Origin: Kiritimatiellia bacterium
GTDB lineage: Bacteria > Verrucomicrobiota > Kiritimatiellia > CAIQIC01 > JAGNIJ01
Length of the DNA: 64,000 bases
Assembly: GCA_018001225.1 (NCBI GenBank)
Contig: JAGNIJ010000006.1
Location: 29,188 to 93,187, forward strand
Direction of reading: 5' to 3'
A program made the translations under genes and the position numbers. Position 1 is the first letter of the stretch; each line of letters opens with the position of its first letter. Shown here one piece after another: positions 7,887 through 47,421 of the stretch. The notes beneath the pieces were generated by a model, which saw nothing but the letters and a program-made list of their open reading frames with translations, was not told the DNA's origin and made no database searches.

Positions 7887-7976
7887 TGCAGTTAATCCAT
7901 GTGAACGCGGGGGCCCTCGGGGCGGACTAAACGGGTGCGGGGCGGCCGGATGGCCCTTGAATCCGGCTGCCCGACC

Positions 7977-16743: not shown

Positions 16744-19287
16744 ATGACCATGACACAAACAGGCCAAAAGAAATGGGCGAAGGCGCTGACCTGGTGGATG
16801 ATTCTTTCCTTCGCGGCCGCCGCCCTCCCGGCGCGTGGCCAGCCGCCGCCCGGCTTTCCCCCGGCGCCGGAAAGTGGAGAGGAGGAGAAATCCGTCAAGG
16901 TGGGTGACGACAAGCTGCTTTCGTTGAGTTTCCGCGACGCGCCGATCGAGCAGGTGGTGATGTTCTACAGCGAGCTGGTGGGGCGCACCCTGCTCCGCGC
17001 CCAGGGCCTCCCCGGCGGCACGATCACCCTCAAGTCCCAGACCCGGCTCACCCAGCGCGAGGCCCTCGAGGCCATCGAGAGCGTGCTGGCCATGAACCAG
17101 GTGGGCCTCGTGCCCATGGGCGAGAAGTTCCTCAAGGTCGTGCCCATCGGCAACGTGCGCGGCGAGGGCATGAAGCTTTCCCTCGAGATGCCGGAGACCC
17201 CGTTCCCCGAGACCGACCAGCTCGTCAGCCAGGTCGTGCCCCTGAAGTACATCGAGCCGGCCGAGGCCAACACGGTCCTGACCGGTTTCCTGCACGCGTC
17301 GTTCGGCAAGGTGCAGGTTCTCGAGCGGACCAGCAGCCTGCTGATCACCGATACCGCCGCCAACATGCAGCGCATCCTGGAAATCCTCGCGTACGTGGAC
17401 CAGCCCACGGAGGCGCGGGTGGAAACCCGGATCTACGAGATCAAGCACACCGAGGCCGCCAAGCTCGCCTCCCGCCTGAACGAACTGATCGCCGATACCC
17501 AGGCCAAGGAGGAGAAACCCCGCGTGGCCGCGCCGGTGACGTCCTCCATTCCCACGCCGCCGGGCGTTATCCGCGCCCGCCAGGCCGGCGCGGCCCCGGA
17601 CCAGGCCGCGCAGGACCTCGAGGCCGCGCTCGCCGAGCGCGGCATTGTCCAGGGCAAGGTCAAGATCGTCGCCGACGACCGCACCAACATCCTGATCGTG
17701 CTTTCGCGGCCCTCCAACTTCACCTTCTTCGACAAGATCATCACCGTGCTGGACCGGGAGGTGGACCCCGAGGTCGTCGTCAAGGTCCTGCCGCTCGAGT
17801 TCGCCAAGGCGAAGGACATCGCCGGCATCCTCAACGAGTTCATCGGTGCCGCGACGTCCGAGTCCAAGGACGCCCCGGCCGGGACGGGCCAGGCCCCCGC
17901 GGAAGGCGCGACGCCGGAGGCGGCGCGCAGCCAGGCCTTGCAGGAGTTCGTGGCGCAGCGGGCCGAGGCGCGCATGCGCCAGATCGCGTCGGGCGAAAAG
18001 ACCCGCATCGGCGAGCTCTCGCCCAACACGAAGATCCTGGCCGACGAGCGCACCAACGCCCTGCTGCTCATGGGCACGGTGAACGACATCAACGCATTGA
18101 TGGACATCATCGGCCAGCTCGACACCATGCTGGCCCAGGTCCTGATCGAGGCCGTGATCCTCGAGGTCAGCCTCACCAAGAGCCTGGACTACGGCGTCGA
18201 CTGGCTCCAGCGGTCCATGGCCGTCTACTCCGACGACAAGGTTGGCGCCGACGGCGGCGTCACGGTCAGCCAGCCGCTTTATTCCTTCGGCGGCGGCCAG
18301 CGCTTGAGCGACGGTACCGTCTTCCGGGACGGCAGCCAGATCACCCGGACCGACAGCGGGATCGGGGCGGGCGGGCTGACCTACTACTCCACGCTGGTCA
18401 ACCTGAACATCGATGCCGTCATCCGCATGGCCGCCGGGTCGTCCGACGCCCGCATCCTGTCCACCCCCGTCATCCTGACCACGGACAACACCGAGGCCAC
18501 CATCGTGGTCGGCGAGGAGCGGCCGGTCGTGACCTCCACCAGCACCTCCAGCGGCGGGCAGCAGACCTCCAGCTACGAGTACCGCAACATCGGCATCGAC
18601 CTCGCCGTCACGCCCCGGATCAACCCGGCCCGGTTTGTCACCATGGAGATCAAGCAGTCGGCCGACAACGTCGGCGGGTTCGAGACCATCGACGGCAACC
18701 GCGTGCCGGTGATCACGAAGCGCGAAATGGCCGCCCAGGTGGCCGTGGGGGACCGCTCGACCATCGTGCTGGGCGGGCTGGTCAGCACCGACCGCCGGGC
18801 CACGCGGGTCAAGGTGCCCATCCTCGGCGACATCCCGATCATCGGCACGCTCTTCCGGAACGACACCCGGGACGACAACCGCACCGAACTGCTCGTGCTC
18901 ATGACGCCGTACGTCCTGATGACCCAGGAGGAGGCGCGGAAGGAAACCGCGCGCCTGCACCGGGCCACGCGCTACTCCCAAACCCGGTGGCAGCGCGGCT
19001 GGTCGGACAGCGAGCTCGCCGGCCCGTCGAAGACGCGGGAACTGAAGATGGCGCCCTCGCTGCTGGACGATCCCGGGCAGAAGAAAAAGCGGAAGATCAA
19101 GGAAGCCAAAACGATTTCCCTGACGCCGGCCGAGACCAATGCGCCCACGCAGTCCCGCTTCCTCGTCACCGTCCCGGAGGATATCTCGTCCTCCCTCTTC
19201 AGCGAGCCCGCGGACGGCGGGGCGGAAGAGGGCGCCGCGCCCGAGGGCGGCGGCGAGGACGATCCGAACGCGCCCGTGCCGCCGTGA
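16744..19287 (+). CDS. gspD: Type II secretion system secretin GspD
   Basis: Signal peptide, N0 and N-domain repeats (SLSFRDAPIEQVVMFYSELVGRTLL; PLKYIEPAEANTVLTGFL), and the secretin core (VLIEAVILEVSLTKSLDYG..., VPILGDIPIIGTLFRN). Long acidic C-terminal extension. Confidence 0.85.
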   Translation: MTMTQTGQKKWAKALTWWMILSFAAAALPARGQPPPGFPPAPESGEEEKSVKVGDDKLLSLSFRDAPIEQVVMFYSELVGRTLLRAQGLPGGTITLKSQTRLTQREALEAIESVLAMNQVGLVPMGEKFLKVVPIGNVRGEGMKLSLEMPETPFPETDQLVSQVVPLKYIEPAEANTVLTGFLHASFGKVQVLERTSSLLITDTAANMQRILEILAYVDQPTEARVETRIYEIKHTEAAKLASRLNELIADTQAKEEKPRVAAPVTSSIPTPPGVIRARQAGAAPDQAAQDLEAALAERGIVQGKVKIVADDRTNILIVLSRPSNFTFFDKIITVLDREVDPEVVVKVLPLEFAKAKDIAGILNEFIGAATSESKDAPAGTGQAPAEGATPEAARSQALQEFVAQRAEARMRQIASGEKTRIGELSPNTKILADERTNALLLMGTVNDINALMDIIGQLDTMLAQVLIEAVILEVSLTKSLDYGVDWLQRSMAVYSDDKVGADGGVTVSQPLYSFGGGQRLSDGTVFRDGSQITRTDSGIGAGGLTYYSTLVNLNIDAVIRMAAGSSDARILSTPVILTTDNTEATIVVGEERPVVTSTSTSSGGQQTSSYEYRNIGIDLAVTPRINPARFVTMEIKQSADNVGGFETIDGNRVPVITKREMAAQVAVGDRSTIVLGGLVSTDRRATRVKVPILGDIPIIGTLFRNDTRDDNRTELLVLMTPYVLMTQEEARKETARLHRATRYSQTRWQRGWSDSELAGPSKTRELKMAPSLLDDPGQKKKRKIKEAKTISLTPAETNAPTQSRFLVTVPEDISSSLFSEPADGGAEEGAAPEGGGEDDPNAPVPP

Positions 19288-21506: not shown

Positions 21507-24500
21507 TTACGGGGAGAGCACCCGGACCCGGTACAGGCGCGAGGTGATGCTCGGCGTGGCGAAGTTGGTGTCCACGTACGTAGTCGTGCCGGAACTGCCC
21601 CAAAACGCGCCGCCGAGGTAGAGCCAGCCGTTCGTAAAGGGCGGCGCGGCGCTGCGATAGAGAACCTGGTAGCGGCGGTTGGTGCTGGACAGGAACCGGA
21701 TCTGCGCCCAGCGGCTGGTCGGAATCGCGGCCGCCTGGGTCACGCGCAGGAGGCTGTTGGCGAGGTTGGGGTCGGTATCCGCCATGTACTCCTCGTAATT
21801 CGACAACCCGTCGCCCTCGATGTCGATGTTGCGGTCCGCGTCGTTCGTGGGATTGAGGCCGTTGGTCTGCTCCCACGTATTCGGCATGCCGTCGCCATCC
21901 CGGTCGCTGTCGCAGGCGTCGCCGACGCCATCACCGTCCAAGTCGGCCTGGTCCAGGTTGGCGACGTTGATGCAGTTGTCCTCGATGTCGCGGAGGCCGT
22001 CGGAATCCGCGTCGTGGTTGGTGTTGCACAGCGTGCAACGCAGGACGACGTCGTCCACCTCCCAGAACAGTTCGTTCCGGGCGTTGTAATAGCGGAACCG
22101 GATGCCCACGTTGGTCAGGCCGGCGAGCGGGGTGGTGAGGTTGATGGTCTCGGTGGCCGGGCCCCGGTAGTCGGCCCGCGACTTCCGCCAGACGTTCGAC
22201 CATGGGCCGGAGAACCCGCTTCGGCAGATATCCACGTCGCAGGTTTCGGACCGGTTGCCGGAGTACCAGTCGAAATCGGTCTTGAACTCGAGTTCCACCG
22301 AGCTCACGGCGCCCAGGTTCAGCACGGGTGGGCGCATTTCCACGTCCATCGTCACGCGGGAGTAGAACCGGCTGTCGGCGATGGCCATGCCGTTGGAGCC
22401 GCCGGTGCCGTTGACCACGTCGCGCGGATTGTCGAACCGCCACGCGGCGGTGCCGCTGTTGGTGGCCAGGGTCCAGCCCGCGGGCAGCGTTTCGGAGGAG
22501 AACGACTCGTCCAGCAGGTTGGTGGTCACGATCGCCCCGGTACACTCATCGCATGCGTCGCCCGTGCCGTCCCCGTCCCGGTCAAGCTGGTTGGCATTGG
22601 CGATGCCCGGGCAGTTGTCCACGCTGTCCTCGACGCCGTCGAGGTCCGCGTCCACGGCGCAGGCGTCGCCGATGCCGTCCCCGTTGGAGTCCTGCTGCCC
22701 GGGATTGGAGGTGGTCGGGCAGTTGTCGCTGTCGTTCGGGATGCCATCGTTGTCGCTGTCGTCGTCGCAGGCGTCGCCCTGTGAGTCCCCGTCGGCATTT
22801 TCCTGCAGCGGGTTGTATGCGGAGGAGCAGTTGTCGAGCGAGTTCGACACCCCGTCGCCGTCCAGGTCGAGGTCGCACGCATCGCCCTGCCCGTCGCCGT
22901 CCAGGTCGGCCTGGTCCGGGTTGTAGGTGGCCGGGCAGTTGTCCTCGTCGTCGTAGATCCCGTCGTTGTCGTCGTCGTAATCGCAGGCATCGCCGTCGCC
23001 GTCGCCGTCACTGTCCACCTGGTCGGCATTGGCGAGATACGGGCAATTGTCGCTGGCGTTCAGCACGCCGTCGTCGTCGATGTCCGGATCGCAGGCGTCG
23101 CCGAGCCCGTCGCCGTCCGCGTCGCTCTGGATGGGGTTCCAGTTGGTGGGGCAGTTGTCGTCCGGGTCGAAGAAACTGTCGCTGTCGGTGTCTTTCTCGC
23201 CGGTGACCAGGCTGCCGGAGATCTGCCCGCTGTTGATCGCGCCCGGGGTGGCCGTGGCCAGGATCCAGTTCGTGGTCGTGCCGATGATATCGTTGGGCGC
23301 CTGGAGCGTGGTGTCTGTCGAGGAATCGGCGCGCAGAACGTGAAGGTAGGTGTTCTCGAGCGACGAGATGTTGGTGAACACGGTGCCGGGGTCGTCGTAG
23401 GCCAGGTCGCCCGCGCCGCCCCAAGCGATGGCGTCGAGGATATTGGTCACCGAGTCGTAGAGGACCAGGCCGTCGCCGGGCCCGTTTTGAAGGCTATCCG
23501 GCAGCAAGAGGTCGGTATTGGCCACGTTGTTGCTGTTCTGGCTAATCACCACGAAGCCCATGGCCTGTCCGTTGGTGTTGACCACGCCGTCGTCCGGCAC
23601 GGTGATGGAAGGCAGGTCATACCGCCACAAACCGCCCTCTTCGTTCGTGGCCCCGTTGAAATGGCGGATGAAATAGCCCTGGAGATTCACCCCGGCCGGC
23701 GCGATGAGTTCAACAAACTCGTTGGTGTCCGTGCTGTTGCCGTCCGCTTGAACCTCGTTGAAGAACGGGCGGGATGCCGCCTCGTAGGTGGCCGGGAAAG
23801 CGTAACTGTTGGTCACGGTGAAGCCCGGGCTGACGGCGTTGGTGCCCTGGAACGCATACCGGACATAATAATCGAAGCTGTCGCCGGCGTCGGGCGACAT
23901 GGAGAGGGTGCCGGTGGACCACTGGTTGCTCGCGCCCTCCGTCATGGCGTTGCTCACCCAGGCGCCGCTCGCGATCCGGTAGAACGCCGCGGCGGCCAGG
24001 TTGGAGGCGGGGAGGTTGTCCTGGAGCGCGACCACGATCGCCACGGCCGTGGTGTGGAAGGGCGCGGAGGGCGACAGGCGCAGGGAGGAACTGACCACGC
24101 CGGCCTGGTCGCAGGCCGCGTGGACCCGGGGCGTGGCCAAGGCCCCCGCCACGAGGGTCCACTCGTTGGTGTCGAATTCCGACAGGGGATCGCAGACCCC
24201 GGCCTTGCGGTACACCGCGTTGCTGCGGTAGGCCCAGGCCATGCTGTAGTCGTTGGTGCTCGCCGGCTCGCCGGAGACGCCGTAGATGTCCATGATCGAG
24301 CCGGCCGAGTTTTTCAGCGCCACCACGTCGTTGCCGTTCAGGAACAACAGGTTGGTGTGCGCCCGTTCCGCGCCCAGGCCGTACGCGTTGAAGAAATCGG
24401 AGGTCCGGGCCGTGACGATGTAGGTCTGGCCCGCGGCGATCGAGTTGCTCAACGGCACGTTCAGCGTCGTGGAGCCGTCCCGGTAGATGACCAGCGTGTA

Positions 24501-25634
24501 GTTGGTCAGCGAATAACCGGCCGTGCCGGAGTTGTACAACTCGACGTAGTTCGCGCCGGCGTTGGTCGGATGGTCCACCACCTCGCTGATCAGCGCGACC
24601 GGGTTCAGGCAGGGGAGCGAGTCCATCAAATGAATGTCGGAGAAAATCAGGAAGTGATCGGACGAGTTGGTGCTGGTCGAGGCGGCGAGGGGCGCGCCGT
24701 ACTTCGTCAACCCGCCGCTGCCGTCGTCCTGGGCGGAGTTGTAGATCTCGCCGACAGGGGCCCCGTACGGGCTGTCCATGATCTGGCCGCTGAAATAGAA
24801 GTAGTCGTAGCGCGGCCCGGTCATGTACGTGTTCATGTTCGTGCTGTCTTCCTGGAAGATGTTGAACTGCTCCAGGCCGATCTCGGCGGGCTTGTCGGTC
24901 GGGTGAAGCCGGTACTTGACCGCGTAGACAATGTCCGTTCCCACGGCGAAATCGGCCGGGTAATCCCCGGCCGGTTGCGAGGCAAAACTATCCACCTGAC
25001 TGTCGGTCACGTCCTCGTTGAAGTCCCCCGTGATCACGTACTCCGTGTCCAGCGGGTAGGTCTCGGCCCAGCCGGCGATGTTGGTCACCGTGCGCATGAG
25101 CTCCAGGGCCCGCCGGAACTGATCGGCGCTGGTGTCGGCGGCCTTGTTGTGCACGCAGTAATAATGGAAGGGGTTCAACGCGCCGGGCACCTGGATCACC
25201 GCGTGCAGCGGCCAGCGGGTCATCTCCTTGGCGCCGTCCGGCTCCTTGATTTCGTACGTGGCCGTGATGGGGTAGCGGCTGTAGAACCCGTTGCGGTGCG
25301 CGCCGGCGTACGTGCCGCCCGTGCCGTAGGCGTAATAGGGATAGTCCAGCTCCGCGGCGAGCGTTACCCAGTAATCGTAGTCGCCGTCGTTCAATTCCTG
25401 GAAGGCGATGATGTCGGGATTGATCCGCTGCAGGATGCCCTTGGCCGCGTTGTAATTGGTGGAGCCGACCGCCCCGACGCCGAACAGCGTGTTCCACGAG
25501 GCGATGCGGACCTTCACGGCCTCCGCCGGAAGCGCCAGGCCCACCGCCATCAAGCCATAAACACAGACACGAGCCGCCTTCCTGCACCACCATGCCCTGC
25601 CCGTCATCAACATGACCTCCCAGCCCTTATGCAA
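21507..25634 (-). CDS. Large secreted endonuclease/exonuclease/phosphatase (EEP) family protein with two lamin-tail (LTD) domains and many thrombospondin type 3 Ca-binding repeats
   Basis: Signal peptide and an EEP domain ([12 protein letters not shown]...[11 protein letters not shown]). Two LTD-like segments ([22 protein letters not shown]...; [23 protein letters not shown]...). Runs of DxDxDGxxDxxDNCP TSP3 repeats and a C-terminal beta-rich domain. Confidence 0.7.
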
Positions 25635-30885: not shown

Positions 30886-31466
30886 ATCTGCCGAACATGC
30901 TGACCTTGAGCCGCCTCCTGCTGGCCGCCGTGATGATGGCCTTTCTGTCGCTGGAGTTTCCCTTCGCGCGGACCGCGGCGCTGCTCGTCTTCAGTGCCGC
31001 GGCGATCACGGACTATTTCGACGGCTACCTGGCCCGGCGCCACTACGGCATCACGGCGTTCGGGCAGCTGATGGACCCGCTCACGGACAAGGTGCTGGTC
31101 TGCGCCGCGTTTGTCAGCTTCGTCGGGATGCAACTGGTGCCCGCGTGGATCGCGGTGGTGATCATCGGCCGCGAATTCCTGGTCACGGGGCTTCGCCTGC
31201 TGGCCGCGCATCGCGGCCACGTGGTCTCCGCGGGGCGGTGGGGCAAGCACAAGACCGTTTGGCAGATCACGGCCATCGTGCTGGTGCTGATGGGCCTGGC
31301 GCTGCGCCACGATTTCCTGGGCCGGGCCTCGCCCGCGGCGCTGGAGTCCTTCGACCTGTGGTTCGGCCGCCTGACCTACGCGATCTCGCTGGCCGTCGCG
31401 GGAATCACGCTGGTCTCCGGCGGGCTGTATTTCCGGGAGCACCGGGACGTGATCGACGCCCGCTAA
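30882..31466 (+). CDS. pgsA: CDP-diacylglycerol--glycerol-3-phosphate 3-phosphatidyltransferase
   Basis: CDP-alcohol phosphatidyltransferase motif D-x2-DG-x2-AR...G-x3-D-x3-D (ITDYFDGYLARR...GQLMDPLTDK). Confidence 0.8.
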   Translation: MNLPNMLTLSRLLLAAVMMAFLSLEFPFARTAALLVFSAAAITDYFDGYLARRHYGITAFGQLMDPLTDKVLVCAAFVSFVGMQLVPAWIAVVIIGREFLVTGLRLLAAHRGHVVSAGRWGKHKTVWQITAIVLVLMGLALRHDFLGRASPAALESFDLWFGRLTYAISLAVAGITLVSGGLYFREHRDVIDAR

Positions 31467-31591
31467 TACCAGGTACGGGTGAGAGGCGGTACGAACGGCG
31501 TCGCAGAGCTCCGCCCTCCAGTGGCAGGAATCATGGAGGGGCGAGCTCCTGCGAGCCCGAAATCTACCCGCCTCACCCGGATTTGGTATAA
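31465..31591. repeat. MITE-like 127-bp hairpin element, copy 1 (terminal inverted repeats ATACCAGGTACGGGTGAGAGGCGG / CCGCCTCACCCGGATTTGGTAT)
   Basis: About 97% identical to the second copy at 38556-38684. Terminal plus nested internal inverted repeats (CGCAGAGCTCCGCCCTCC...GGAGGGGCGAGCTCCTGCG). Sits in a convergent intergenic gap and abuts the pgsA stop codon. Confidence 0.65.
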
Positions 31592-31611
31592 CTCGTGGCG
31601 GCCTCGCGCCG

Positions 31612-32451
31612 TCAGGCCGGATTCTCCGCCGCCTCCGCCTCGATCTGCTTGCGGATCCGGTCCAGGCAGGCGTCGTAGGCCAGCGCGGTCGTGAGGAAGA
31701 AATGGCAGGAGCGCCCGGTGAGGCGCCGGACCTCGTCGCGCAGCTCGGTGTCGTAGGGGTTGAGCAGGGCCACCAGCGCGTCGGAATTCATCAGCTCGAA
31801 CACCACCGCGGCGCGGCGCGCCATGAAATCCGCGGGCAGCAGGCTGTAGGCCTCCTTCGGCAGGTCGAACTGCCCGAGCGGGATGATCGGCAGCCCGCTG
31901 TTGATGGACATGAACTGCAGGATCTTGTCGATCTGCTTGAACCCCCGGTCGTAGAGGACGTGCTGGACCGTGACGGGCACGACCACCGTGCGCATGGAAT
32001 TCTCGCTTAAGTCGTGCGCGATGGAGGCGTAGTCCTCCTGGGAGAGCTCCCCGGCCTGCGCCAGGTTCCAGGCCAGCGCGAGCTCGGGGGCGATATCCAC
32101 GCCGCGGCGGCGGACGGGTTCGGCGGCGGCGGCCGCGGGCTCCACGGGCGAGGTCAGGCGGGTGAGCCGCTCCGCCAGGGCCGCCGCGGGGGGCTGGCCC
32201 GCGCCCAGCTCGTGGAGCTTCTCGATGATCCGGGGCGCGGCCTCGGCGTCCGATTCGTCCGCCACGACGCGCGCCAGGCGGACCAGGTACTCGAGGGCCT
32301 TGGGGCGGTCGCCGATCTCCTCGTAGGCGTCGAACAGGGTCTCGAGCGCCAGCCGGTCGTCCGGCAGGGCTTCGAGGATCTGCTCGAAGGCGGCGATGGC
32401 CTCCCGTACGTGGGGGGCATCTCCCGAGGCGTCCTGTGGGTTCTTGTCCAT
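31612..32451 (-). CDS. Stand-alone GspE-N-terminal-like (T2SSE_N / MshEN-like) domain protein
   Basis: C-terminal half matches the T2SSE_N fold pattern (LLPADFMARRAAVVFELMNSDALVALLNPYDTELRDEVRRLTGRSCHFFLTTALAYDACLD). No ATPase domain. Divergently adjacent to a PilB/GspE-like ATPase. Start taken at MDKNPQ (alternative at 32499). Confidence 0.5.
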   Translation of the reverse strand: MDKNPQDASGDAPHVREAIAAFEQILEALPDDRLALETLFDAYEEIGDRPKALEYLVRLARVVADESDAEAAPRIIEKLHELGAGQPPAAALAERLTRLTSPVEPAAAAAEPVRRRGVDIAPELALAWNLAQAGELSQEDYASIAHDLSENSMRTVVVPVTVQHVLYDRGFKQIDKILQFMSINSGLPIIPLGQFDLPKEAYSLLPADFMARRAAVVFELMNSDALVALLNPYDTELRDEVRRLTGRSCHFFLTTALAYDACLDRIRKQIEAEAAENPA

Positions 32452-32585
32452 CCGGCTTTCCTGTTGGGCCTTTGTCCTATATAATACACAAGATGCCATT
32501 TGTCATCCAGCGCCTGCGGCCGGGCGGGCCGGCGGCGGTTGGCATTGCAGTTGCTTGAAGGACAGGGAACGGGAAGGAAAGCGCC

Positions 32586-34298
32586 ATGGAAGCGGGTTCG
32601 TTGGGCGAACGGGTACTGGATATTCTGTTGCAGCGCCGGGACATTCCCGAGGAACCGCTGCGCGAAGTGCGGCAGGAGGCCAGCACCTCCGGCCGGCGGC
32701 TGGAGAAGCTGCTGGTCGAGAAAAACCTGGTCTCCGCCCTCGACATGACCCTTGCCCTGGCCGAGCATCTGAAAATTCCGCCGATCACGCTGACCCATTT
32801 CACGCCCAATCCCGACCTGCTCCAGATCCTGCCGATGGAACTGCTGGCGGCGCACGCCATGCTCCCGCTGGACCGCACGGGCTCCATGCTCACGCTGGCC
32901 GTGGCCGATCCCTTCGACGTGGTCGGCCTCGAGGAGGTCCATACCCATACCCACCTGGAGATCGTGCCCGTCGTGGCCGCCGAGAAGGAGGTCACCGACC
33001 TGCTCCAGCGGTTCACGAAGGCGCCGGGCCAGGGGCTCGAGGAAATCATCCGGGACGTGAGTGAAGGCGAGGTCGAGGTCGGCCGCGAGGAGAAGGAGGA
33101 GATCAGCCTCGAGGAGATGCTGGAGAGCGCCGGCGACGCGCCGGTCATCCGGATCGTCAACTCGATCATGATCGAGGCGATCCGCAAGCACGCCAGCGAT
33201 ATCCACGTGGAGCCGATGGAAAAAAGCATCCGGCTGCGCTACCGCATCGACGGCTCCCTGTACGAAACGCCGAGCCCGCCGAAGTCGCTGCAGTCCGCGA
33301 TCATCTCGCGCGTGAAGATCATGGCCAACCTCAACATCGCCGAGCGCCGCATCCCGCAGGACGGCCGCTTCCGCATTCGCGCTGTCGGCAAGGAGGCCGA
33401 CGTGCGCGTCAGCATCCTGCCCACCGTGCACGGCGAGAAGATCGTCATGCGCATCCTCGACCGCGCCGCGCTGGCGCCCAACCTGGCGTCGTTGGGGCTG
33501 GACAAGAAGGCCTACGAGGATCTGCGGTATTCCATCGGCCAGCCGCACGGCATGATCCTGGTCACCGGGCCGACGGGCAGCGGCAAGACCACCACCCTCT
33601 ATTCCGCCCTGCAGGAGCTGAACACCCTCGACGTCAATATCATCACGATCGAGGACCCGGTGGAGTACCAGTTGCAGGGCATCAACCAGATCCAGGCCCA
33701 CCCGGAGGTCGGCCTGACCTTCGCCACCGGCCTGCGCTCCATCCTGCGGCAGGACCCCGACATCGTGATGGTCGGCGAAATACGCGACCAGGAAACGGCC
33801 GCCATCGCCGTCCAGGCCGCCCTGACCGGCCACCTGCTGTTGAGCACCCTGCACACGAACGACGCCGCCGGCGCCGTGGCCCGGCTCCTCTACATGGGCA
33901 TCGAGGCGTTCCTGCTGGCCTCGTCGCTGATCATGACCCAGGCGCAGCGGCTGTACCGCAAGCTCTGCCCGGCCTGCAAGAAGGAGCGCCGGATGCCCCT
34001 CGAAATTCTGCGGCTGAACCATATCGACCCGGAACGGTTCGCCGACGTCAAGATGTACGAGGCCGTCGGCTGCCCGAAATGCTTCAACACGGGCTACCGG
34101 GGCCGGGCGGCGCTGATGGAGGTTCTGCTCCTGGATGACCCGGTGCGCGCCCTGATCCTCGAGGAAGCCAGCGCGGGCGCGATCCGGGAGCAGGCCGTCA
34201 AGGGTGGCATGCTCACCCTCCGCGAGGCGGGATTGCAGCGCGTCCGCGAGGGGATCACCAGCATCGAGGAAGCGCTGCTCGTCACCAGCGGAGACTAG
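32586..34298 (+). CDS. PilB/GspE-family secretion ATPase (second copy)
   Basis: T2SSE_N domain, Walker A GPTGSGKTTT, and the tetra-Cys motif CPAC...CPKC. Paralogous to gspE at 7977. Confidence 0.8.
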   Translation: MEAGSLGERVLDILLQRRDIPEEPLREVRQEASTSGRRLEKLLVEKNLVSALDMTLALAEHLKIPPITLTHFTPNPDLLQILPMELLAAHAMLPLDRTGSMLTLAVADPFDVVGLEEVHTHTHLEIVPVVAAEKEVTDLLQRFTKAPGQGLEEIIRDVSEGEVEVGREEKEEISLEEMLESAGDAPVIRIVNSIMIEAIRKHASDIHVEPMEKSIRLRYRIDGSLYETPSPPKSLQSAIISRVKIMANLNIAERRIPQDGRFRIRAVGKEADVRVSILPTVHGEKIVMRILDRAALAPNLASLGLDKKAYEDLRYSIGQPHGMILVTGPTGSGKTTTLYSALQELNTLDVNIITIEDPVEYQLQGINQIQAHPEVGLTFATGLRSILRQDPDIVMVGEIRDQETAAIAVQAALTGHLLLSTLHTNDAAGAVARLLYMGIEAFLLASSLIMTQAQRLYRKLCPACKKERRMPLEILRLNHIDPERFADVKMYEAVGCPKCFNTGYRGRAALMEVLLLDDPVRALILEEASAGAIREQAVKGGMLTLREAGLQRVREGITSIEEALLVTSGD

Positions 34299-34327
34299 GG
34301 AAGGCGACGGCGCGAGGAGAAATCACG

Positions 34328-35458
34328 ATGGCCATCAGCACAACGCCGGGAAGCCGGTCCCGTTCCGCCGCGACCGCCGCCTCGGCCCCGATCCGGAAGC
34401 GCCGGATCCCCGGCGCGCAGAAGATCAAGGCCAAGGAACTGCCGGCCTTCACCCGCCAGATGGGCGCCATGCTGTCGGCCGGTCTGCCGGTGGTCCAGAC
34501 CCTGGAGGCGCTGGAGGAGCAGAACACCAACAAGGTCTTCAAGCACGTCATCAGCGGCGTCAAGTCGCGCATCGAGGGCGGGGCGTCTTTTTCCGAGGCG
34601 CTGGCCCAGTACCCGGACATCTTCGACGAGCTCTACATCAGCATGCTGCGGGCCGGGGAGAGCGGGGGCATGCTGGCGGAAACCACCGCCCGCATCGCGA
34701 CCTTTCTCGAGGGCTGGGTGCGGCTGAAGCGCAAGGTCAAGTCGGCCATGATGTACCCCGTCATCGTGATGGTGGTCGCCCTGCTTATCACGTCGTCCCT
34801 GATCATCTGGATCGTGCCCATCTTCGCGAGCATCTATGCCGACTTCGGGGCGGATCTTCCCGGCCCCACCCAGTGGCTCATGAACGTCAGCACCGCCATG
34901 CGCAAGAACGCGGTTTTTGTCGTGGCGGGGATCGTCGTGACGGCGATCGCCCTGGGCCAGTTCAAGAAAACCGAGAAGGGGGCGTTCATGTGGGACGGGA
35001 TCAAGCTCCGGCTCCCGGTTGTCGGCGAACTGGTGCGCAAGATATCCCTCGCCCGATTCTCCTCCACCTTCGCCCAACTGACGCGCAGCGGGGTGCCGAT
35101 CCTGCAAACCATGGAGATCGTCGCCTACGCGACGGGGAACAAGGTGCTGGGCAAGATCGTCCTTGACGCGCGGACCAACGTCGAGCGGGGCGAGCCCCTC
35201 TCCGCGGCCCTCAACAAGAGCAGGGCCTATCCCCGCCTGCTGATCCACATGCTCACGGCGGGCGAAAAAACAGGCCGCGTGGACGAGATGCTCGCCAAGA
35301 TCGCCGACTTCTATAACGACGAAGTGGAGACCACGCTCGCGGGCCTGACCTCCCTCATTGAGCCCCTGCTGATCGTGTTCCTGGGCGTGATCATCGGCGG
35401 CGTCGTGGTCTGCATGTTCATGCCCATCTTCAAGATGCATGAGATCGTAGGCTTCTGA
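34328..35458 (+). CDS. PilC/GspF-family platform protein (second copy)
   Basis: Two PilC/GspF repeats and 3 TM. Paralogous to gspF at 9736. Confidence 0.75.
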   Translation: MAISTTPGSRSRSAATAASAPIRKRRIPGAQKIKAKELPAFTRQMGAMLSAGLPVVQTLEALEEQNTNKVFKHVISGVKSRIEGGASFSEALAQYPDIFDELYISMLRAGESGGMLAETTARIATFLEGWVRLKRKVKSAMMYPVIVMVVALLITSSLIIWIVPIFASIYADFGADLPGPTQWLMNVSTAMRKNAVFVVAGIVVTAIALGQFKKTEKGAFMWDGIKLRLPVVGELVRKISLARFSSTFAQLTRSGVPILQTMEIVAYATGNKVLGKIVLDARTNVERGEPLSAALNKSRAYPRLLIHMLTAGEKTGRVDEMLAKIADFYNDEVETTLAGLTSLIEPLLIVFLGVIIGGVVVCMFMPIFKMHEIVGF

Positions 35459-35668
35459 AGCCCGCTCTGAATCCGGCGGCAGGGCAGAATCGAGATGCGT
35501 TGCGTGATCCACGCGCATGCTCCAACACCCCTTTGGATAATCGCCGCCGGACCACTCCCTTTGCATGAAAAATGCATCCATTTTTTACAAAATGAGAACA
35601 TTTTTCTTAACATTGAGTGGATAAACCTGTACTCTTACCCCGGTGGTCGGGTTGTCTTGGAGATTATT

Positions 35669-37048
35669 ATGGCGCGAATACTCTTGGTGGATGACGAGGC
35701 CAGTATCCTTAGCGTGTTAAGCACCTTGCTCAAGGCCGAGGGGCACGAGGTGCTGCCGGTCATGGGCGGCGAGAAGGCGCAGGACCTCATCCGCAACGAG
35801 CAGTTCGACCTCATGATCTCGGACATCCGGATGAGCCCCGTAGACGGCATGCAGCTTCTCCAGCAGATCCGCAAGGAAAAGCCCCAGACGGCGGTAATCA
35901 TGATCACGGCGTACGGGTCAGTGGAGACTGCCGTCGAAAGCATGAAGCAGGGCGCCTTTGACTACGTGACCAAACCCTTCAAGGTGGACGAGCTCCTGCT
36001 GACCGTCCAGCGGGCGCTGGAGTACGGGGCGGCGATGGCGGAGAACGTTGAACTCAAGGCCCAGATCGAATCGCGTTACCATTTCGAGAACATCATTGCC
36101 GAGAGCGCGGCCATGCGCCGGGTCTGCGAAATGATCGAGCGGGTGGCCCCGACGGATACCACCGTGCTGATCCTGGGGGAGAGCGGGACGGGCAAGGAAC
36201 TGGTGGCCAAGGCCATTCATGCCCACAGCCGCCGGAAGAACAAGCGGTTCCTGCCCATCAACTGCGCGGCCATGCCCGAGCCGCTCCTGGAGTCAGAGAT
36301 GTTCGGGCACGTCAAGGGCGCCTTCACGGGAGCCACCGTCAACAAGGATGGCTTGTTCGAGGCCGCCAACGGCGGGACGATCTTCCTGGACGAGATCGGG
36401 GCCATGCCGCCCAGCATCCAGGGCAAGCTCCTGCGAGTGCTCCAGGACAAGCAGATTCGGCGGGTGGGGGGGACCGACTCGGTGGCCGTGGATGTCCGTG
36501 TCCTGGCCGCCACAAACGACCGGCTGGAAAATCTGATCGAGCAGGGCAAGTTCCGGGAAGACCTGTATTATCGTTTGAGCGTTATCCCTATAGAAATCAA
36601 GCCGCTGCGGGAGCGTATCGAGGATGTCCTTCCCTTGTGCTATCACTTTCTCCGCCAGGAGGCGGGCCCCAACCGCGAGCCTTTGCCCGTGGATCCGGAT
36701 GCCCAGTTGGTCATGGAGCAGTACTCCTGGCCGGGTAACGTGCGGGAACTGGAAAACGCCGTCCGCCACGCCATGACCTTCGCACAGGAAAAGGGGCGTA
36801 TCACGAGGGATGTCCTGCCCGCGAAGATTGTCGCGGCAGTCGACAGCGGAGCCACGACCGCGGCGGCGATAGGAATCCGCGCCGAGCAGTTCAAGGGTAA
36901 ATCACTGAAGAGCTTCCTTCGCAGCAAGGAAAAAGAGTACCTTGAGCAGGTGCTAAAGAACGTTGATGGTGATAAAGCCAAGGCCGCCAAGGCGTTAAAG
37001 ATAAGCCTTGCCACTCTCTACCGGAAGCTTCCGGAGCCCAGAGAATAA
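35669..37048 (+). CDS. Sigma-54-dependent response regulator (NtrC/PilR family enhancer-binding protein)
   Basis: REC domain (LLVDDE...D in LMISDIRM), AAA+ sigma-54 activator domain with Walker A GESGTGKE and the GAFTGA motif, and a C-terminal Fis-type HTH. Preceded by a low-GC leader containing the palindrome TGCATGAAAAATGCA. Confidence 0.85.
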   Translation: MARILLVDDEASILSVLSTLLKAEGHEVLPVMGGEKAQDLIRNEQFDLMISDIRMSPVDGMQLLQQIRKEKPQTAVIMITAYGSVETAVESMKQGAFDYVTKPFKVDELLLTVQRALEYGAAMAENVELKAQIESRYHFENIIAESAAMRRVCEMIERVAPTDTTVLILGESGTGKELVAKAIHAHSRRKNKRFLPINCAAMPEPLLESEMFGHVKGAFTGATVNKDGLFEAANGGTIFLDEIGAMPPSIQGKLLRVLQDKQIRRVGGTDSVAVDVRVLAATNDRLENLIEQGKFREDLYYRLSVIPIEIKPLRERIEDVLPLCYHFLRQEAGPNREPLPVDPDAQLVMEQYSWPGNVRELENAVRHAMTFAQEKGRITRDVLPAKIVAAVDSGATTAAAIGIRAEQFKGKSLKSFLRSKEKEYLEQVLKNVDGDKAKAAKALKISLATLYRKLPEPRE

Positions 37049-37300
37049 GGCTTGTTGCAAACGTTTTATAACAAGTAACTTGTCCCTCGCTATACCGCTT
37101 TCGATTATTTTCAAAGTTGTTATGTCATCTTTTATAATTTGATTACACATTGTCGATTGTTAAAATATTGTGTATTATATTGTCTATTAAATAGTTGCGA
37201 AGATGTTATCCGTCGCCGAAGCATTTTTTTATTCCAATGTGCGCATCGGTATCTATTGGTTTTGTATCTTTTTCGGCCCTTTGAATGGCCTTGGCTCGCA

Positions 37301-37316
37301 TGGCATGGTGATTGCT
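37301..37316 (+). promoter_or_regulatory. Sigma-54 (-24/-12) promoter TGGCATGGTGATTGCT upstream of first pilin gene
   Basis: GG-N10-GC spacing with TGGCA and TTGC elements (consensus TGGCACG-N4-TTGCW). About 65 nt upstream of the ATG at 37383, in an AT-rich 300-bp intergenic region. The TTCCAATGT half-motif lies at 37232-37240. Confidence 0.6.
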
Positions 37317-37382
37317 TATTATCAATACGAAGGGCTGGGGTAGCCCATGGCGGATAAGAGAAAACAACTAGAGGAGAATGCA

Positions 37383-37733
37383 ATGAGAAGGAATGCTGGT
37401 TTCACGCTGGTGGAGATCATGATCGTTGTGGCCATCATTGGCCTGTTGGCGGCCATCGCCATTCCGTCGTTTGTGCGCGCGCGCCAGACGACCCAGACCA
37501 ATACCTGCATCAACAACCTCCGGCTGATTGATGCGGCCAAGCAGCAGTGGGCGCTGGAAACGGGCGCGGCGGCCGATGCGGCCCCGGGCGAAGCGGACAT
37601 CCAGCCCTACATGAAGAATGATGAATCCCCGATTTGCCCCCTCTCCGATGCGTTTGATTACACCATCGGCGACCTGGCAACGGATCCGACCTGCGCGAAT
37701 TTCAACGCCGATTCGCATAACGCCGTTCTGTAA
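37383..37733 (+). CDS. Prepilin-type (type IV pilin / pseudopilin-like) protein with CINNLRLID...QWALE motif
   Basis: MRRNAG|FTLVEIMIVVAIIGLLAAIAIPSF class III signal. 116 aa. Paralog of 37864-38241. An alternative upstream ATG at 37347 precedes the predicted transcription start. Confidence 0.7.
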   Translation: MRRNAGFTLVEIMIVVAIIGLLAAIAIPSFVRARQTTQTNTCINNLRLIDAAKQQWALETGAAADAAPGEADIQPYMKNDESPICPLSDAFDYTIGDLATDPTCANFNADSHNAVL

Positions 37734-37741
37734 GTGGTCAG

Positions 37742-37785
37742 TCCACCCGTTAGCAGCCCCGGCATGGCGCCGGGGCTGCTTTTTT
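37742..37785 (+). terminator. Rho-independent terminator after first pilin gene
   Basis: AGCAGCCCCGGCATGGCGCCGGGGCTGCTTTTTTTG: a perfect GC stem plus a T7 run. Confidence 0.75.
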
Positions 37786-37824
37786 TGTGTAATTATTTGC
37801 CCGTGAAATAGATAAGCTGGAGCT

Positions 37825-37840
37825 TGGCATGAAGCCTGCT
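37825..37840 (+). promoter_or_regulatory. Second sigma-54 promoter TGGCATGAAGCCTGCT upstream of second pilin gene
   Basis: GG-N10-GC with TGGCAT and CTGC elements, about 25 nt upstream of the ATG at 37864. Confidence 0.5.
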
Positions 37841-37863
37841 TTATTTATATGCACTCGGGCCCC

Positions 37864-38241
37864 ATGAAAAGGCGAATCCAGTGTCGCACGGCGGTGGTTC
37901 CGAAACGGGCGACTCTACGGCGCGGGTTCACCTTGCTTGAAATCATGATCGTGGTCAGTTTCATTGGGCTCCTGGCAGGATTGGCCGTTCCCGGCTTGCT
38001 GCGCGCAAGGCAGTCCTCCCAGCGGGTGCGGTGCATCGACAATCTTCGTCAGATCGATTCCGCGAAGGAGCAGTGGGCCATGGAGAATTTCGCCGGCGAG
38101 GGGGACCCGGTGGGCGAGGGGGACATCACCCCGTATTTCCAGAGGGGTTTCCCCGTGTGCCCCGCCCGGGGCGAGTACACGATCATGGCGATCGGACAGA
38201 ATCCGCAGTGCGACCAGGACGGTCACGTGTTGCGCGAGTAG
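37864..38241 (+). CDS. Prepilin-type protein, paralog of 37383 (CIDNLRQIDSAKEQWAME motif)
   Basis: RRG|FTLLEIMIVVSFIGLLAGLAVPGL class III signal. Conserved C-x-NLR-ID-AK-QWA-E block shared with the upstream pilin. Leader is 21 aa from ATG 37864; a GTG at about 37894 would give 11 aa. Confidence 0.65.
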   Translation: MKRRIQCRTAVVPKRATLRRGFTLLEIMIVVSFIGLLAGLAVPGLLRARQSSQRVRCIDNLRQIDSAKEQWAMENFAGEGDPVGEGDITPYFQRGFPVCPARGEYTIMAIGQNPQCDQDGHVLRE

Positions 38242-38298: not shown

Positions 38299-38394
38299 TG
38301 TCATTCCGAGCGAAGCGGGGAATCTCCAGCGTTCTTCACGACTCCGGAGATCCCTCCCGCCGGAGGTGGGCAGGCGGCTCCGCTCGGGATGACA
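38299..38394 (+). repeat. Long-range inverted repeat TGTCATTCCGAGCG ... CGCTCGGGATGACA enclosing a GC-rich 68-nt segment downstream of the pilin genes
   Basis: 14-bp arms with one mismatch, read directly. Lies in a 310-bp non-coding stretch with further local hairpins. Possible RNA stability or terminator element, or a small RNA. Confidence 0.35.
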
Positions 38395-38555: not shown

Positions 38556-38684
38556 TAATACCATGTACGGGTGAGAGGCGGTGCGAACGGCGTCGCAGAG
38601 CTCCGCCCTCCAGTGGCAGGAATCATGGAGGGGCGAGCTCCTGCGAGCCCGAAATCTACCCGCCTTCACCCGGATTTGGTATAA
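38556..38684. repeat. MITE-like hairpin element, copy 2
   Basis: Near-identical to 31465-31591 (2-3 substitutions and a 1-nt indel). Also sits in a convergent intergenic gap. Confidence 0.65.
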
Positions 38685-38715
38685 GACCGGCATTGAAGTT
38701 TCCGGCCCGTCCCGT

Positions 38716-39918
38716 TCAGCGCGGTACGATATCCCTGCAGAACGTGACGAATGTATTGCGGCGCCGAGTCAAGGGCGCGGAAACTTCCACGGAGCGCAGG
38801 GTATTCCCCATGGAATTCTTGAACACGACCTTGACCGAGGAGAGATCCTTCGGCGCCCGGACCCGCGCCACCTGCATCCACCGGGGCAGCGTTTGCCACC
38901 GCCGGACATCCGGCTGCTCCAGCAGCCCGATCAGGATGAATCGGACCAGTTCCCCCCAGCCTTCGCTATGAGTTTCATGCTCGACGGCTTCGGCGATGGC
39001 TTCCTTGAGAATGATGCGGCCGACGGTCTTGGCGGTCTGCTGCAGCGCGCGCAGTTTTTCGGTCAGAAAGGTCAGCTCGACCGTGTCGGAGAGGTTGTAG
39101 CTCCGGCCCAGGAGTTGGTTCCCGGCATAAATCTCGGCATAGGCCGCCGGCTCCGGGTGCCAGTCCTCGCGCCACTGGGCGTCGGCCCGGGGGGCGCGGC
39201 CGATCAGGACGAAGGCGACCAGTTCCGCCGGCCAGCGTTCTTCGGTTTCCGCGGGAGGGGCGGCGGGCTGGCCGTCCGCGCCGGGCGGGGGTCGCACGTA
39301 AAGGCGGCCGGTGTTCTCGTTCACGGCGAGCCCGCCCATGAGCTCCGAGGCGCGCTTGTACTGCAGGGCCGCATTGGAATCGTCGTCGATCATCTCCAGG
39401 CAGAACCCGGCCATGTACCGCGAGTAGGCGTCCTCGGGATACTCGCCCCGGATGTCCGGTTCCAGGGACTTGATGATGCGGCGCGACTCGACCGCGGCAT
39501 CGTCCCATTTCCCCAGGGCCAGGTAGTTCTTGGCCGCCATGGCGTGGAGCAAGGTCCGCTCGAACGGCGCCCCGCGGAAATTCTGGACGCCGTCGTTGAC
39601 CACCCAGCTGGCGGCGCCCTTGGAGACGCTGTAGGTCTGCAACTCCTCGAGCCGCTGGTTCGCCGCGTCGAAGTCCTTGGCGCTGTCCTCGTAGCGCCCC
39701 GCCGCTTGCCGGATGGTGCCGCGCTCCATCAGGAAGAGGACCTCGTCCTTTTCCGGGGGCTTGGCCGTCTCCAGCACCTGGTCAGCCTGGGCCGTCCGCC
39801 CGAGGTAGTAGTTCTGGCGGGCGGCTTCCAGGCCGGGGGTGGCGCATCCGGCGCCCAGGCCCGCGAGGGCCAGCAGGGCGCAAAGCCTCACCCAGGCAAT
39901 GGCGCGCGGACGGGCCAT
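38716..39918 (-). CDS. Lipoprotein of unknown function (signal peptide + lipobox LAGLGAGC)
   Basis: Lipobox at residues 18-25. 400 aa with an N-terminal TPR-like region. Sits directly upstream of, and apparently co-transcribed with, the LpoB-like lipoprotein gene. Confidence 0.55.
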   Translation of the reverse strand: MARPRAIAWVRLCALLALAGLGAGCATPGLEAARQNYYLGRTAQADQVLETAKPPEKDEVLFLMERGTIRQAAGRYEDSAKDFDAANQRLEELQTYSVSKGAASWVVNDGVQNFRGAPFERTLLHAMAAKNYLALGKWDDAAVESRRIIKSLEPDIRGEYPEDAYSRYMAGFCLEMIDDDSNAALQYKRASELMGGLAVNENTGRLYVRPPPGADGQPAAPPAETEERWPAELVAFVLIGRAPRADAQWREDWHPEPAAYAEIYAGNQLLGRSYNLSDTVELTFLTEKLRALQQTAKTVGRIILKEAIAEAVEHETHSEGWGELVRFILIGLLEQPDVRRWQTLPRWMQVARVRAPKDLSSVKVVFKNSMGNTLRSVEVSAPLTRRRNTFVTFCRDIVPR

Positions 39919-39928
39919 GGGAGCTCCT

Positions 39929-40552
39929 TTACCAGCCGATCAGCGGCAGGCTGGCCTGGCGGGCGAATTCCTTCTCCGTGGTCCAGGAAATCAGGCCCGT
40001 TTCCAGGTCGGTGATCTCGATCGTCAGCTTGTAGTAGTTGCGCTGCTGCTTCGAGACGCGGACCTGGCGCTTCGACCGGTCCTCCATCTCGATCAGCGAG
40101 CCGGTAAGCATGTACTTGGCGCCGAGTTGGCGGCCGATCGCCGTCTGGGTCTCCGCCGTGGCGTGCGCGGCCTGGTAGCCCTGCTCCTTGAGCAGTTCCT
40201 CGCGCCGGGACTCGTTGACGAACTGGGCCTTGCCGGCCTGGATGATCATCGTGCGGATGCGGTCCGTCAGGGCCTTGAGGTCGCGGTGGTCCATCGTCCG
40301 GTTCTGCACGCCCGCGATCATCATGATCGGGGGCTGGGGCTGGTCGTTGAGGAAGGGGCTGGCCAGCAGTTCGTTGGCGACCTCCTCCGTGAGGAAGCGC
40401 ATGTCGGTGTAATCGTACGTGGAGCCGAAATGCTGGCGGTCCTCCACGTTGACATCGGTCGTCGAGGCGCGGAACGCGGCGCATCCCGCCGAAAACACCA
40501 GCGCGACCAGGGCCAGGCTGCTCACTCCCATCCATTTCATCAGGCGATTCAT
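39929..40552 (-). CDS. LpoB/CsgG-fold-like small lipoprotein (possible penicillin-binding-protein activator LpoB family)
   Basis: Lipobox VFSAGC. About 200 aa. C-terminal YYKLTIEITDLETGLISWT motif resembling the LpoB/YcfM family. Confidence 0.4.
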   Translation of the reverse strand: MNRLMKWMGVSSLALVALVFSAGCAAFRASTTDVNVEDRQHFGSTYDYTDMRFLTEEVANELLASPFLNDQPQPPIMMIAGVQNRTMDHRDLKALTDRIRTMIIQAGKAQFVNESRREELLKEQGYQAAHATAETQTAIGRQLGAKYMLTGSLIEMEDRSKRQVRVSKQQRNYYKLTIEITDLETGLISWTTEKEFARQASLPLIGW

Positions 40553-40735
40553 GGCTGTCTCCTTTGTTGGTCCACTCGCTTGAAACCCGTATACCGCTTT
40601 CCCGCGGCTGAATCAACACGCATCGGTTTCCGCACGGTTAGACGGCGGCCCGTCCGGATCATTCAAAAATGCCGGTTGCCCTCCCGGCGTTTTGTGCTAA
40701 AGTCCCCCGGTTTGCGGCCCGAAAGGCCGCCGGGC

Positions 40736-40808
40736 GACCCCATCATCTAGAGGCCTAGGATACCAGGTTTTCATCCTGGACACACGGGTTCGAATCCCGT
40801 TGGGGTCG
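40736..40808 (+). tRNA. tRNA-Glu (anticodon TTC)
   Basis: GACCCCATCATCTAGAGGCCTAGGATACCAGGTTTTCATCCTGGACACACGGGTTCGAATCCCGTTGGGGTCG. The 7-bp acceptor, D-arm, anticodon loop TTTTCAT and T-loop GGTTCGAATCC resemble E. coli tRNA-Glu. No encoded CCA. Confidence 0.8.
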
Positions 40809-40871
40809 TTCTTCAATGCGGCGGGCGGGCGCGAGTCGGACGTCCGCCGATTCCACGGGAAAGGTGCGAGC

Positions 40872-47346: not shown

Positions 47347-47421
<75 letters not shown>

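Follow-up and report, generated by a model that had tools for sequence, protein, structure and literature searches.

The locus described here raises two questions: what kind of filament is built by a second set of assembly genes that lies in the same stretch of DNA as a secretion system, and how is the expression of its pilins controlled? We analyzed 64,000 nt of a Kiritimatiellia bacterium (GCA_018001225.1, contig JAGNIJ010000006.1), referred to below as the window. The module in question, at 31612-38241, encodes a PilB-type assembly ATPase, a PilC-type platform protein, a PilR-like response regulator, two paralogous pilins, and a divergently transcribed protein that combines tetratricopeptide repeats (TPR) with a stand-alone GSPII (MshEN-fold) domain, designated here as the TPR-GSPII protein. 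A preliminary description of this DNA had proposed a second, sigma-54-controlled pilus module, and this core reading stands. We consider the module to be a type IVa-pilus-like core cassette that is controlled by sigma-54 through the PilR-type regulator, with a probability of about 0.7.

Genes were called as open reading frames (ORFs) with the expected codon-position G+C pattern in this DNA of approximately 68% G+C. Start codons were set by conservation with a syntenic locus of a close relative (GCA_035453605.1), designated as L082, which keeps the Shine-Dalgarno sites and the proposed ATGs but not the upstream ATGs of the mechanically called ORFs. All six genes listed in the preliminary description are present, with corrected start codons. 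The pilC start and its Shine-Dalgarno site are both conserved in L082. For pilin 1, the Shine-Dalgarno site and the chosen ATG are conserved and the upstream ATG is not. The regulator starts with MARILLVDDE, the upstream ATG of its mechanical ORF being wrong, and its translation shows GAFTGA, the Walker A motif, and the receiver Asp, Thr, and Lys.

The sigma-54 motif TGGCAY-N5-YTGCW (TGGCAYNNNNNYTGCW) was searched in the window. It occurs at three places in the 64 kb, where 0.16 matches are expected; of 100 shuffled sequences, none reached three. All three matches are intergenic, lie on the sense strand inside the module, and precede pilB, pilin 1, and pilin 2 (Table 1). Both promoter strings quoted previously for the pilin genes exist; the third promoter, before pilB, had been overlooked. 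The latter is conserved in L082 (5185) and in another cassette locus, L003 (148). In the comparison of the window with L082, the − 24/− 12 elements, the leader hairpin, and the ribosome-binding sites are kept, and the AT-rich upstream DNA has diverged.

To extend this result to the pilin family, metagenomes were scanned with the pilin alignment, which yielded 80 loci with 118 pilin genes, 114 of them with at least 150 nt of upstream sequence. The strict − 24/− 12 motif was found on the sense strand within 220 nt upstream of 65 of the 114 genes and on the antisense strand of none, at a background density of 0.021 per 220 nt. The distances between motif and ATG cluster at 85-97 and 138-151 nt. 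Most of the scanned pilin genes are solitary or arranged in tandem arrays, with a promoter for each copy; among these loci, the full cassette was found only in L150, and a regulator with a pilin in L146. Sigma-54 control is a hallmark of this pilin family. The proposal of a pilin pair in which each gene has its own − 24/− 12 promoter under the control of sigma-54 and an enhancer-binding protein thus holds in the window and also in related genomes.

The whole cassette, in which the TPR-GSPII gene is divergent from the genes for PilB, PilC, the regulator, and the pilins, was found in eight or more independent loci of Kiritimatiellia or Lentisphaerae type. L082/L083, L088, L089, L090, and L150 are among them, and L002 and L003 also carry it as far as their contigs extend. 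The number of pilins per cassette varies from one to three, and the cassette of L089 has two PilB copies. Between the window and L088-L090, the regulator is the most conserved protein (68-79% identity); the values are 56-75% for PilB, 54-70% for PilC, 42-63% for the pilins, and 37-50% for the TPR-GSPII protein. The PilBs of the cassettes are orthologous to the module PilB and not to the GspE of the type II secretion system (T2SS), to which they are 40-44% identical. Neither a kinase nor PilT is encoded in any of the eight cassettes.

Table 1 Genes and regulatory elements of the module, with positions in the window.
Feature	Position	Strand	Remarks
TPR-GSPII (MshEN-fold) stand-alone protein, 279 aa	31612-32451	-	Divergent from pilB
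Sigma-70-like promoter of the TPR-GSPII gene (ATGACA, 17 nt, TATATA)	32478-32506	-	Predicted from conservation
Sigma-54 - 24/- 12 promoter of pilB (TGGCATTGCAGTTGCT)	32540-32555	+	31 nt before the pilB ATG
PilB-type assembly ATPase, 570 aa	32586-34298	+	Pfam T2SSE (4.8e-139) and MshEN
PilC-type inner-membrane platform protein, 376 aa	34328-35458	+	Pfam T2SSF, two repeats (1e-63)
Sigma-70-like promoter before the regulator gene (TTTACA, 18 nt, TAACAT)	35584-35613	+	Promoter scan
PilR-like sigma-54 response regulator, 459 aa	35669-37048	+	Response_reg, Sigma54_activat, AAA_lid_14, HTH_8
AT-rich region upstream of pilin 1, presumed enhancer/bending region	37049-37300	+	38% G+C
Sigma-54 - 24/- 12 promoter of pilin 1 (TGGCATGGTGATTGCT)	37301-37316	+	Conserved in L082
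GC-rich hairpin in the 5' leader of pilin 1 (GGGCTGGGGTAGCCC)	37332-37346	+	Identical in L082, flanks diverge
Pilin 1, prepilin of 116 aa, leader of 6 aa	37383-37733	+	N_methyl (3.6e-09)
Intrinsic terminator after pilin 1	37752-37787	+	12-bp stem (37752-37780) with 10 G-C pairs, then T-run
Sigma-54 - 24/- 12 promoter of pilin 2 (TGGCATGAAGCCTGCT)	37825-37840	+	Conserved in L082 at 10446
Pilin 2, paralogue, prepilin of 125 aa, leader of 20 aa	37864-38241	+	Head-domain profile (5.7e-29)

A complete T2SS is encoded at 7935-19287, 12-25 kb from the module. As had been described, the second GspE/PilB and GspF/PilC pair is separate from it, and both systems are present in the window; PilB is 45% identical to the GspE and PilC is 33% identical to the GspF of the T2SS. 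The module could be read as a second T2SS-like system that forms a periplasmic pseudopilus and borrows GspC/L/M/D and the minor pseudopilins of its neighbor. We regard this as unlikely. In its favor, the ATPase scores nearly alike on the two relevant NCBIfam models (PilB, 632.4 bits against a cut-off of 675.65; GspE, 622.5 bits against 630.25), and public records label members of the family as "type II secretion system protein". The same reading is favored by the lack of minor pilins, alignment proteins, and a secretin in the cassette, by the full T2SS nearby, and by the ExeA-like and GspB/C-like genes that adjoin the TPR-GSPII gene in L088.

Other features of the same proteins point to a pilus. 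The best PDB sequence match of the ATPase is M. xanthus PilB (3jc8, 3.8e-163), followed by Geobacter PilB (5zfr). The platform protein scores 357 bits on the Myxococcus-type PilC model and 328 bits on GspF, the PilC types remaining below their equivalog cut-offs. Helix alpha-1 of the pilins is closest to Geobacter PilA-N and Myxococcus PilA. Both pilins fail the GspG model TIGR01710 (41 and 38 bits, cut-off 88.85, with only the N-terminal helix matched) and have no match to PF08334, whereas the T2SS owns a GspG. The PilR-type regulator and the gene order are features of type IVa clusters and likewise argue against a T2SS-like system. The order matches pilB-(T)-C-(S)-R-A of the classical loci L022, L023, and L026, to whose regulators the module regulator is 44-47% identical. 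The classical order pilB-pilT-pilC-(kinase)-regulator is found in loci of Nitrospirae and other phyla, and the ATPase is 44-45% identical to PilB of the classical Nitrospirae loci. In L090, a PilM-like gene adjoins the cassette, with only a PAS-domain protein and no kinase nearby, and most pilins of the family, being solitary or in arrays, are encoded far from any T2SS.

The partners missing from the module bear on the same choice. Among the filtered ORFs of the window we found no histidine kinase, PilM-Q, PilT, or prepilin peptidase, in agreement with the earlier statement that a sensor kinase, PilM-Q, and PilT are absent nearby; outside the T2SS, the window likewise contains no minor pilins, prepilin peptidase, PilMNOPQ, or PilT. 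A scattered arrangement of the pil genes is usual, with pilMNOPQ in a cluster of their own (PMC6060248). The absence of these partners is therefore nothing unusual and gives no positive reason for sharing with the T2SS. The suggestion that the module uses the L-M-D machinery of the T2SS found no support and remains speculative.

The type IVa-like reading can be compared with the pilB-pilT-pilC-pilS-pilR-pilA cluster of Myxococcus xanthus and Geobacter. The two share the order of B, C, R, and A, and a regulator composed of REC, AAA+, and HTH_8 domains. The Myxococcus/Geobacter cluster has pilT and pilS, whereas all eight cassettes have neither. The module in turn adds the divergent TPR-GSPII gene upstream, its pilin head is unrelated in sequence, and pilB has its own sigma-54 promoter in the module and in its closest relatives.

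A competence (Com-like) pilus of short pilins for DNA uptake was also considered, and we judge it very improbable. The mature pilins are indeed small (approximately 105-110 aa), PilT is absent from the cassette, one family member is named ComGC by its source, and weak matches to ComGC and ComGA models were obtained; a large, secreted, nuclease-like protein is encoded at 21507-25634. However, the pilins reach only 35 and 23 bits on the ComGC model NF040999 (cut-off 75), again over the N-terminal helix only, and no ComEA, ComEC, or DprA was found among the scanned ORFs of the window. ComGA is short, whereas the ATPase of the module is a full-length, PilB-like protein whose N-terminal part bears a GSPII domain.

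The two pilins are 49% identical and, as noted previously, have the block C-x-NLR-x-ID-x-AK-x-QWA-x-E in common. Both passed the N_methyl and TIGR02532 models. With the cleavage point marked by a slash, the prepilin leader is MRRNAG/FTLVEIM in pilin 1, and that of pilin 2 ends with RRG/FTLLEIM. A Kiritimatiellae metagenome-assembled genome (MAG) at NCBI encodes a protein 100% identical to pilin 1, and the AlphaFold2 model of pilin 1 shows a pilin fold (predicted local distance difference test score, 87). Pilin 1 is probably the major pilin. The ortholog of pilin 2 in L082 is 80% identical.

The pilins had been called DUF1559-like, and this assignment was not borne out. PF07596 matches neither pilin at E ≤ 10 and weakly matches 2 of 53 family members (E 0.007). 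Proteins of the DUF1559/SBP_bac_10 type of Planctomycetes have approximately 250-350 aa and an HX9DG motif, whereas the pilins of the window have about 110 aa and no HX9DG; the motif is impossible in them because each pilin has a single His, situated only 4-5 residues before its C-terminus. The likeness is limited to the prepilin N-terminus and a C-x-NNL(R/K)QI stretch of helix alpha-1. Membership in DUF1559, GspG, and ComGC was tried and failed in every case, with models below their cut-offs or without a match.

The head of approximately 70 residues that follows the helix is an undescribed domain. No Pfam or NCBIfam model covers it; a profile search of the PDB gave chance matches only and did not recover PilJ, and Foldseek returned nothing below 1e-3. 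We searched residues 35-116 of the pilin against 1.84 billion cluster representatives and obtained 1,968 matches at E ≤ 0.001, of which 117 were at 1e-10. Among the best 150 matches, 33 were recognized as prepilins by a pattern that undercounts them, and most of those longer than about 140 aa have no prepilin N-terminus. These non-pilin proteins include secreted proteins in which the head is repeated in tandem up to seven or eight times, membrane-anchored coiled-coil proteins with a C-terminal copy, and others with extracytoplasmic function (ECF)-sigma and DUF3738 regions. The genes that surround them were uninformative.

In 199 instances, the consensus of the head is C-x-NNLR-x-ID-x-AK-x-QWALE ... 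PY ... P-x-CP-x-GG-x-YT ... P-x-C-x(3)-GH. All four residues of the Cys3-His signature, which are C42, C85, C104, and H112 in the 116-aa prepilin of pilin 1, occur together in 174 of them, or in 186 when a nearby His is counted; 8 instances have none of the three Cys and no conserved His, and 1 is intermediate. This all-or-none pattern fits a four-ligand metal site better than a single disulfide, and the head probably contains a Cys3-His metal site. Two multi-repeat head proteins match the Pfam family PilJ_Pilin around CP-x-GG-x-Y, one below the cut-off and the other just above it by its summed score, which is a hint at most. C. difficile PilJ was reportedly described by Piepenbrink et al. in 2014 as a pilin with structural zinc. 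The pilins of the module resemble EpsG/PulG and T. thermophilus PilA4 and PilA5 in their small size; the head has no significant match by sequence or Foldseek, and it is a separable domain that also occurs outside pilins.

The product of 31612-32451 has weak TPR matches in its N-terminal part followed by a MshEN/GSPII domain and has no ATPase domain, which confirms the divergent, stand-alone T2SSE_N (MshEN-like) protein described earlier. The family to which the protein belongs is compact (99 clusters) and stays beside pilB. Its few members with a named source all come from MAGs labeled Kiritimatiellae, Lentisphaerae, or "Verrucomicrobia", and their annotation is either hypothetical or TPR protein. 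It is a lineage-specific family kept next to pilB. In both structure and sequence, the closest match is the GSPII-A domain of Thermus thermophilus PilF (PDB 9g1w), the one PilF domain that did not bind cyclic di-GMP (c-di-GMP) in isothermal titration calorimetry (PMC11731258). The c-di-GMP motifs are degenerate in both. In Thermus, the ATPase itself carries three N-terminal domains, GSPII-A being the first, whereas here the domain is part of a separate, TPR-fused protein encoded beside the ATPase gene.

The stand-alone GSPII protein might be a c-di-GMP sensor that signals to PilB. The motif for c-di-GMP binding consists of two tandem 24-residue units of RLGxx(L)(V/I)xxG(I/F)(L/V)xxxxLxxxLxxQ, and a relaxed pattern has also been published (PMC5013675). 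Neither the strict nor the relaxed pattern was found in any of 27 TPR-GSPII members, in the module PilB, or in the T2SS GspE. The relaxed pattern is too strict as the sole test, as Asn at position 10 makes it reject M. xanthus PilB, a c-di-GMP binder, as well, and some published binders deviate from the consensus (PMC11731258); both points leave room for a sensor. Residue-by-residue alignments were therefore used in addition. Compared with M. xanthus and Geobacter PilB, Gly3 is replaced in the module PilB by Leu and Glu, and Gln24 by Ala and His, in motifs I and II, respectively. In the motif II region of the TPR-GSPII protein, Thr, Gln, and Lys take the places of Arg1, Gly3, and the hydrophobic residue 12, and no convincing motif I was found in this protein. 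On the NCBIfam c-di-GMP motif model NF053729, PilB scores 22.5 bits against a cut-off of 38 and the TPR-GSPII protein has no match. The preliminary description, which suggested the c-di-GMP link, had itself named the lack of the RLGxx motif in the T2SSE_N domains as evidence against it, and the motif is lacking in both. Together with the best match to a non-binding domain, these results leave a c-di-GMP sensor little chance. The TPR-GSPII protein most likely serves as an adaptor or modulator, either of the ATPase or of the site at which the ATPase docks.

The DNA between the genes was examined for further regulatory elements. The spacer between the regulator gene and pilin 1, previously noted as AT-rich, has 38% G+C in surroundings of approximately 68% and is not conserved in sequence in L082. 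A shared dyad was sought upstream of 13 promoters, and nothing exceeded the shuffled controls. The search for shared k-mers gave only the 11-mer TTTGATTACAC, a weak lead, which lies in the same orientation at − 163 from the pilin 1 promoter (37138-37148) and at − 172 from the pilin 2 promoter (approximately 37653-37663). The second copy is inside the coding sequence of pilin 1, and the chance expectation is about 0.03; this 11-mer is a possible enhancer half-site. Another sequence, TTGTGTATTATAT, found near the pilB and pilin 1 promoters, was rejected as a binding site of the regulator because its copy in the pilB spacer coincides with the conserved − 10-like block of the promoter of the divergent gene and its copy upstream of pilin 1 is not conserved in L082.

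The promoter of the TPR-GSPII gene has both hexamer blocks conserved between the window and L082 with a variable spacer between them, and the promoter scan did not call it because the last base of its − 10 hexamer is A. The promoter of the regulator gene lies within the sole strongly conserved block of the spacer between pilC and the regulator gene. The textbook terminator that had been noted after pilin 1 was found by the scan, and its stem is kept in L082 through a compensatory change. The hairpin in the pilin 1 leader, situated between the sigma-54 promoter and the ribosome-binding site, has small GC-rich counterparts in the pilin leaders of L088, L089, L090, and L003 and may be an mRNA stabilizer or a regulatory element.

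Several points weigh against a sigma-54-controlled type IVa-like pilus. The ATPase alone cannot be assigned to pili or T2SS because its near-equal PilB and GspE scores are both below the cut-offs. The cassette has no PilT, PilD, PilMNOPQ, or minor pilins, so that a surface pilus is presumptive. The sigma-54 promoter of pilB is not evident in the more distant loci, including L088 and L089, and neither the dyad search nor the shared k-mer search found an enhancer site. The search for rpoN and the kinase was confined to the 64 kb window, and the metal site is predicted from conservation.

The proposed regulation can be outlined as follows. The regulator would be made at a basal level, and its intact receiver domain would be phosphorylated by a histidine kinase encoded elsewhere. 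The activated AAA+ ring would then bind the AT-rich upstream DNA and open sigma-54 closed complexes, giving strong, switch-like expression of two single-gene pilin units and of pilB-pilC. Read-through from pilB-pilC into the regulator gene may provide positive feedback. The prepilins would be cleaved by a prepilin peptidase encoded elsewhere, and PilB and PilC would polymerize the pilins into a thin fiber, each subunit of which would carry the head of about 70 residues, probably stabilized by the Cys3-His metal site. Alignment, secretin, and any retraction components would be encoded elsewhere in the genome, and the TPR-GSPII protein would most likely act on PilB or on the docking site of PilB as a protein-protein adaptor or modulator, independently of c-di-GMP.

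Control of this kind has precedents. In P. aeruginosa, the pilin gene pilA is controlled by PilS-PilR with RpoN. In X. oryzae, sigma-54 and PilR (RpoN2-PilRX) act directly on the pilA, pilC, and pilR promoters (PMC7170775). The module resembles both systems in having a GG-N10-GC promoter before the major pilin and assembly genes and a PilR-type regulator encoded in the cluster. The module differs from them in that its regulator has no adjacent kinase. We found no published description of PilR/sigma-54 control of pilins in bacteria of the Planctomycetes-Verrucomicrobia-Chlamydiae (PVC) group.

The module is flanked by repeats. Two direct copies of a long, imperfect hairpin of about 128 nt, 98% identical to each other, lie at 31464-31592 and 38556-38685 in the convergent spacers on either side (folding energy, − 72.9 kcal/mol; z = − 6). 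The hairpin has no Rfam match; the window contains no further copy, and scanning the metagenomes gave no exact match. A mobile island bounded by these repeats was considered and rejected: L082 has the cassette with the same neighbors and neither repeat. Both copies of this hairpin element were therefore inserted later, and they look like insertions of a miniature inverted-repeat transposable element (MITE)- or repetitive extragenic palindrome (REP)-like element. A different palindromic element (GTCATTCCGAGCG...CGCTCGGGATGAC; − 55 kcal/mol, z = − 3.7) is located at 38300-38393 in the spacer after pilin 2, which is enlarged to approximately 470 nt here from 46 nt in L082. In L002, a Kiritimatiellia MAG locus, tandem short repeats resembling GACGGCAGAC/GACGACGGAC follow the regulator gene immediately (6960-7075).

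The regulator gene and both pilin genes (35669-38241) have a third-position G+C of 0.76-0.82, compared with 0.87-0.95 in all neighbors, and the same is seen in L082. This could reflect expression-related codon use or an old horizontal transfer. Convergent to the pilins, a 400-aa lipoprotein-like ORF without a family match and an LpoB-like gene are located at 38716-40552 on the minus strand. The pair also adjoins the pilins in L082 and in L088, which is more distant, and may have a functional link to the cassette or merely represent conserved synteny. A large TPR protein is encoded immediately upstream of the T2SS gspE (6245-7849); weakly similar TPR proteins are encoded upstream of pilB in L088 (8069-9940) and beside solitary pilin genes in L084, L112, L148, and L158. 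The 1375-aa product of 21507-25634 (minus strand), with endonuclease/exonuclease/phosphatase and lamin-tail domains and numerous thrombospondin type 3 repeats, is probably a nuclease that is secreted or located at the surface. The window further contains a thiamine pyrophosphate (TPP) riboswitch at 4994-5101, before a thiamine-related AIR-synthase-like gene, and genes for tRNA-Glu(UUC) at 40735-40809 and tRNA-Gly(CCC) at 47347-47421.

The control logic of the module is already familiar; its distinctive features are the regulator without an adjacent kinase, the TPR-GSPII partner, and the modular Cys3-His head. In a bolder reading, which we put forward tentatively and with considerable doubt, these would make up a minimal filament system of PVC bacteria, combining mini-pilins with zinc-stabilized Cys3-His heads, a dedicated TPR-GSPII cofactor that governs the ATPase, and all-or-none pilin expression by sigma-54 promoters and a PilR without an adjacent kinase. 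If this is true, the Cys3-His head would be a free-standing extracytoplasmic module reused in repeat arrays, coiled-coil proteins, and ECF-sigma/DUF3738 proteins, and the TPR-GSPII protein, as a PilB partner of a new class, would take the place of c-di-GMP, PilZ, or FimX-type input.

For the organisms concerned, which are mostly uncultured and whose surface structures have barely been studied, the analysis extends sigma-54/PilR-type control of pilins, known mainly from Proteobacteria, to Kiritimatiellia and related PVC bacteria. Major pilin genes in PVC genomes can be located by means of the promoter signature, and the TPR-GSPII protein is a testable candidate for a new kind of assembly-ATPase partner. 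The head domain ties the pilins to many anonymous secreted and membrane-anchored proteins and could improve the annotation of thousands of hypothetical proteins.

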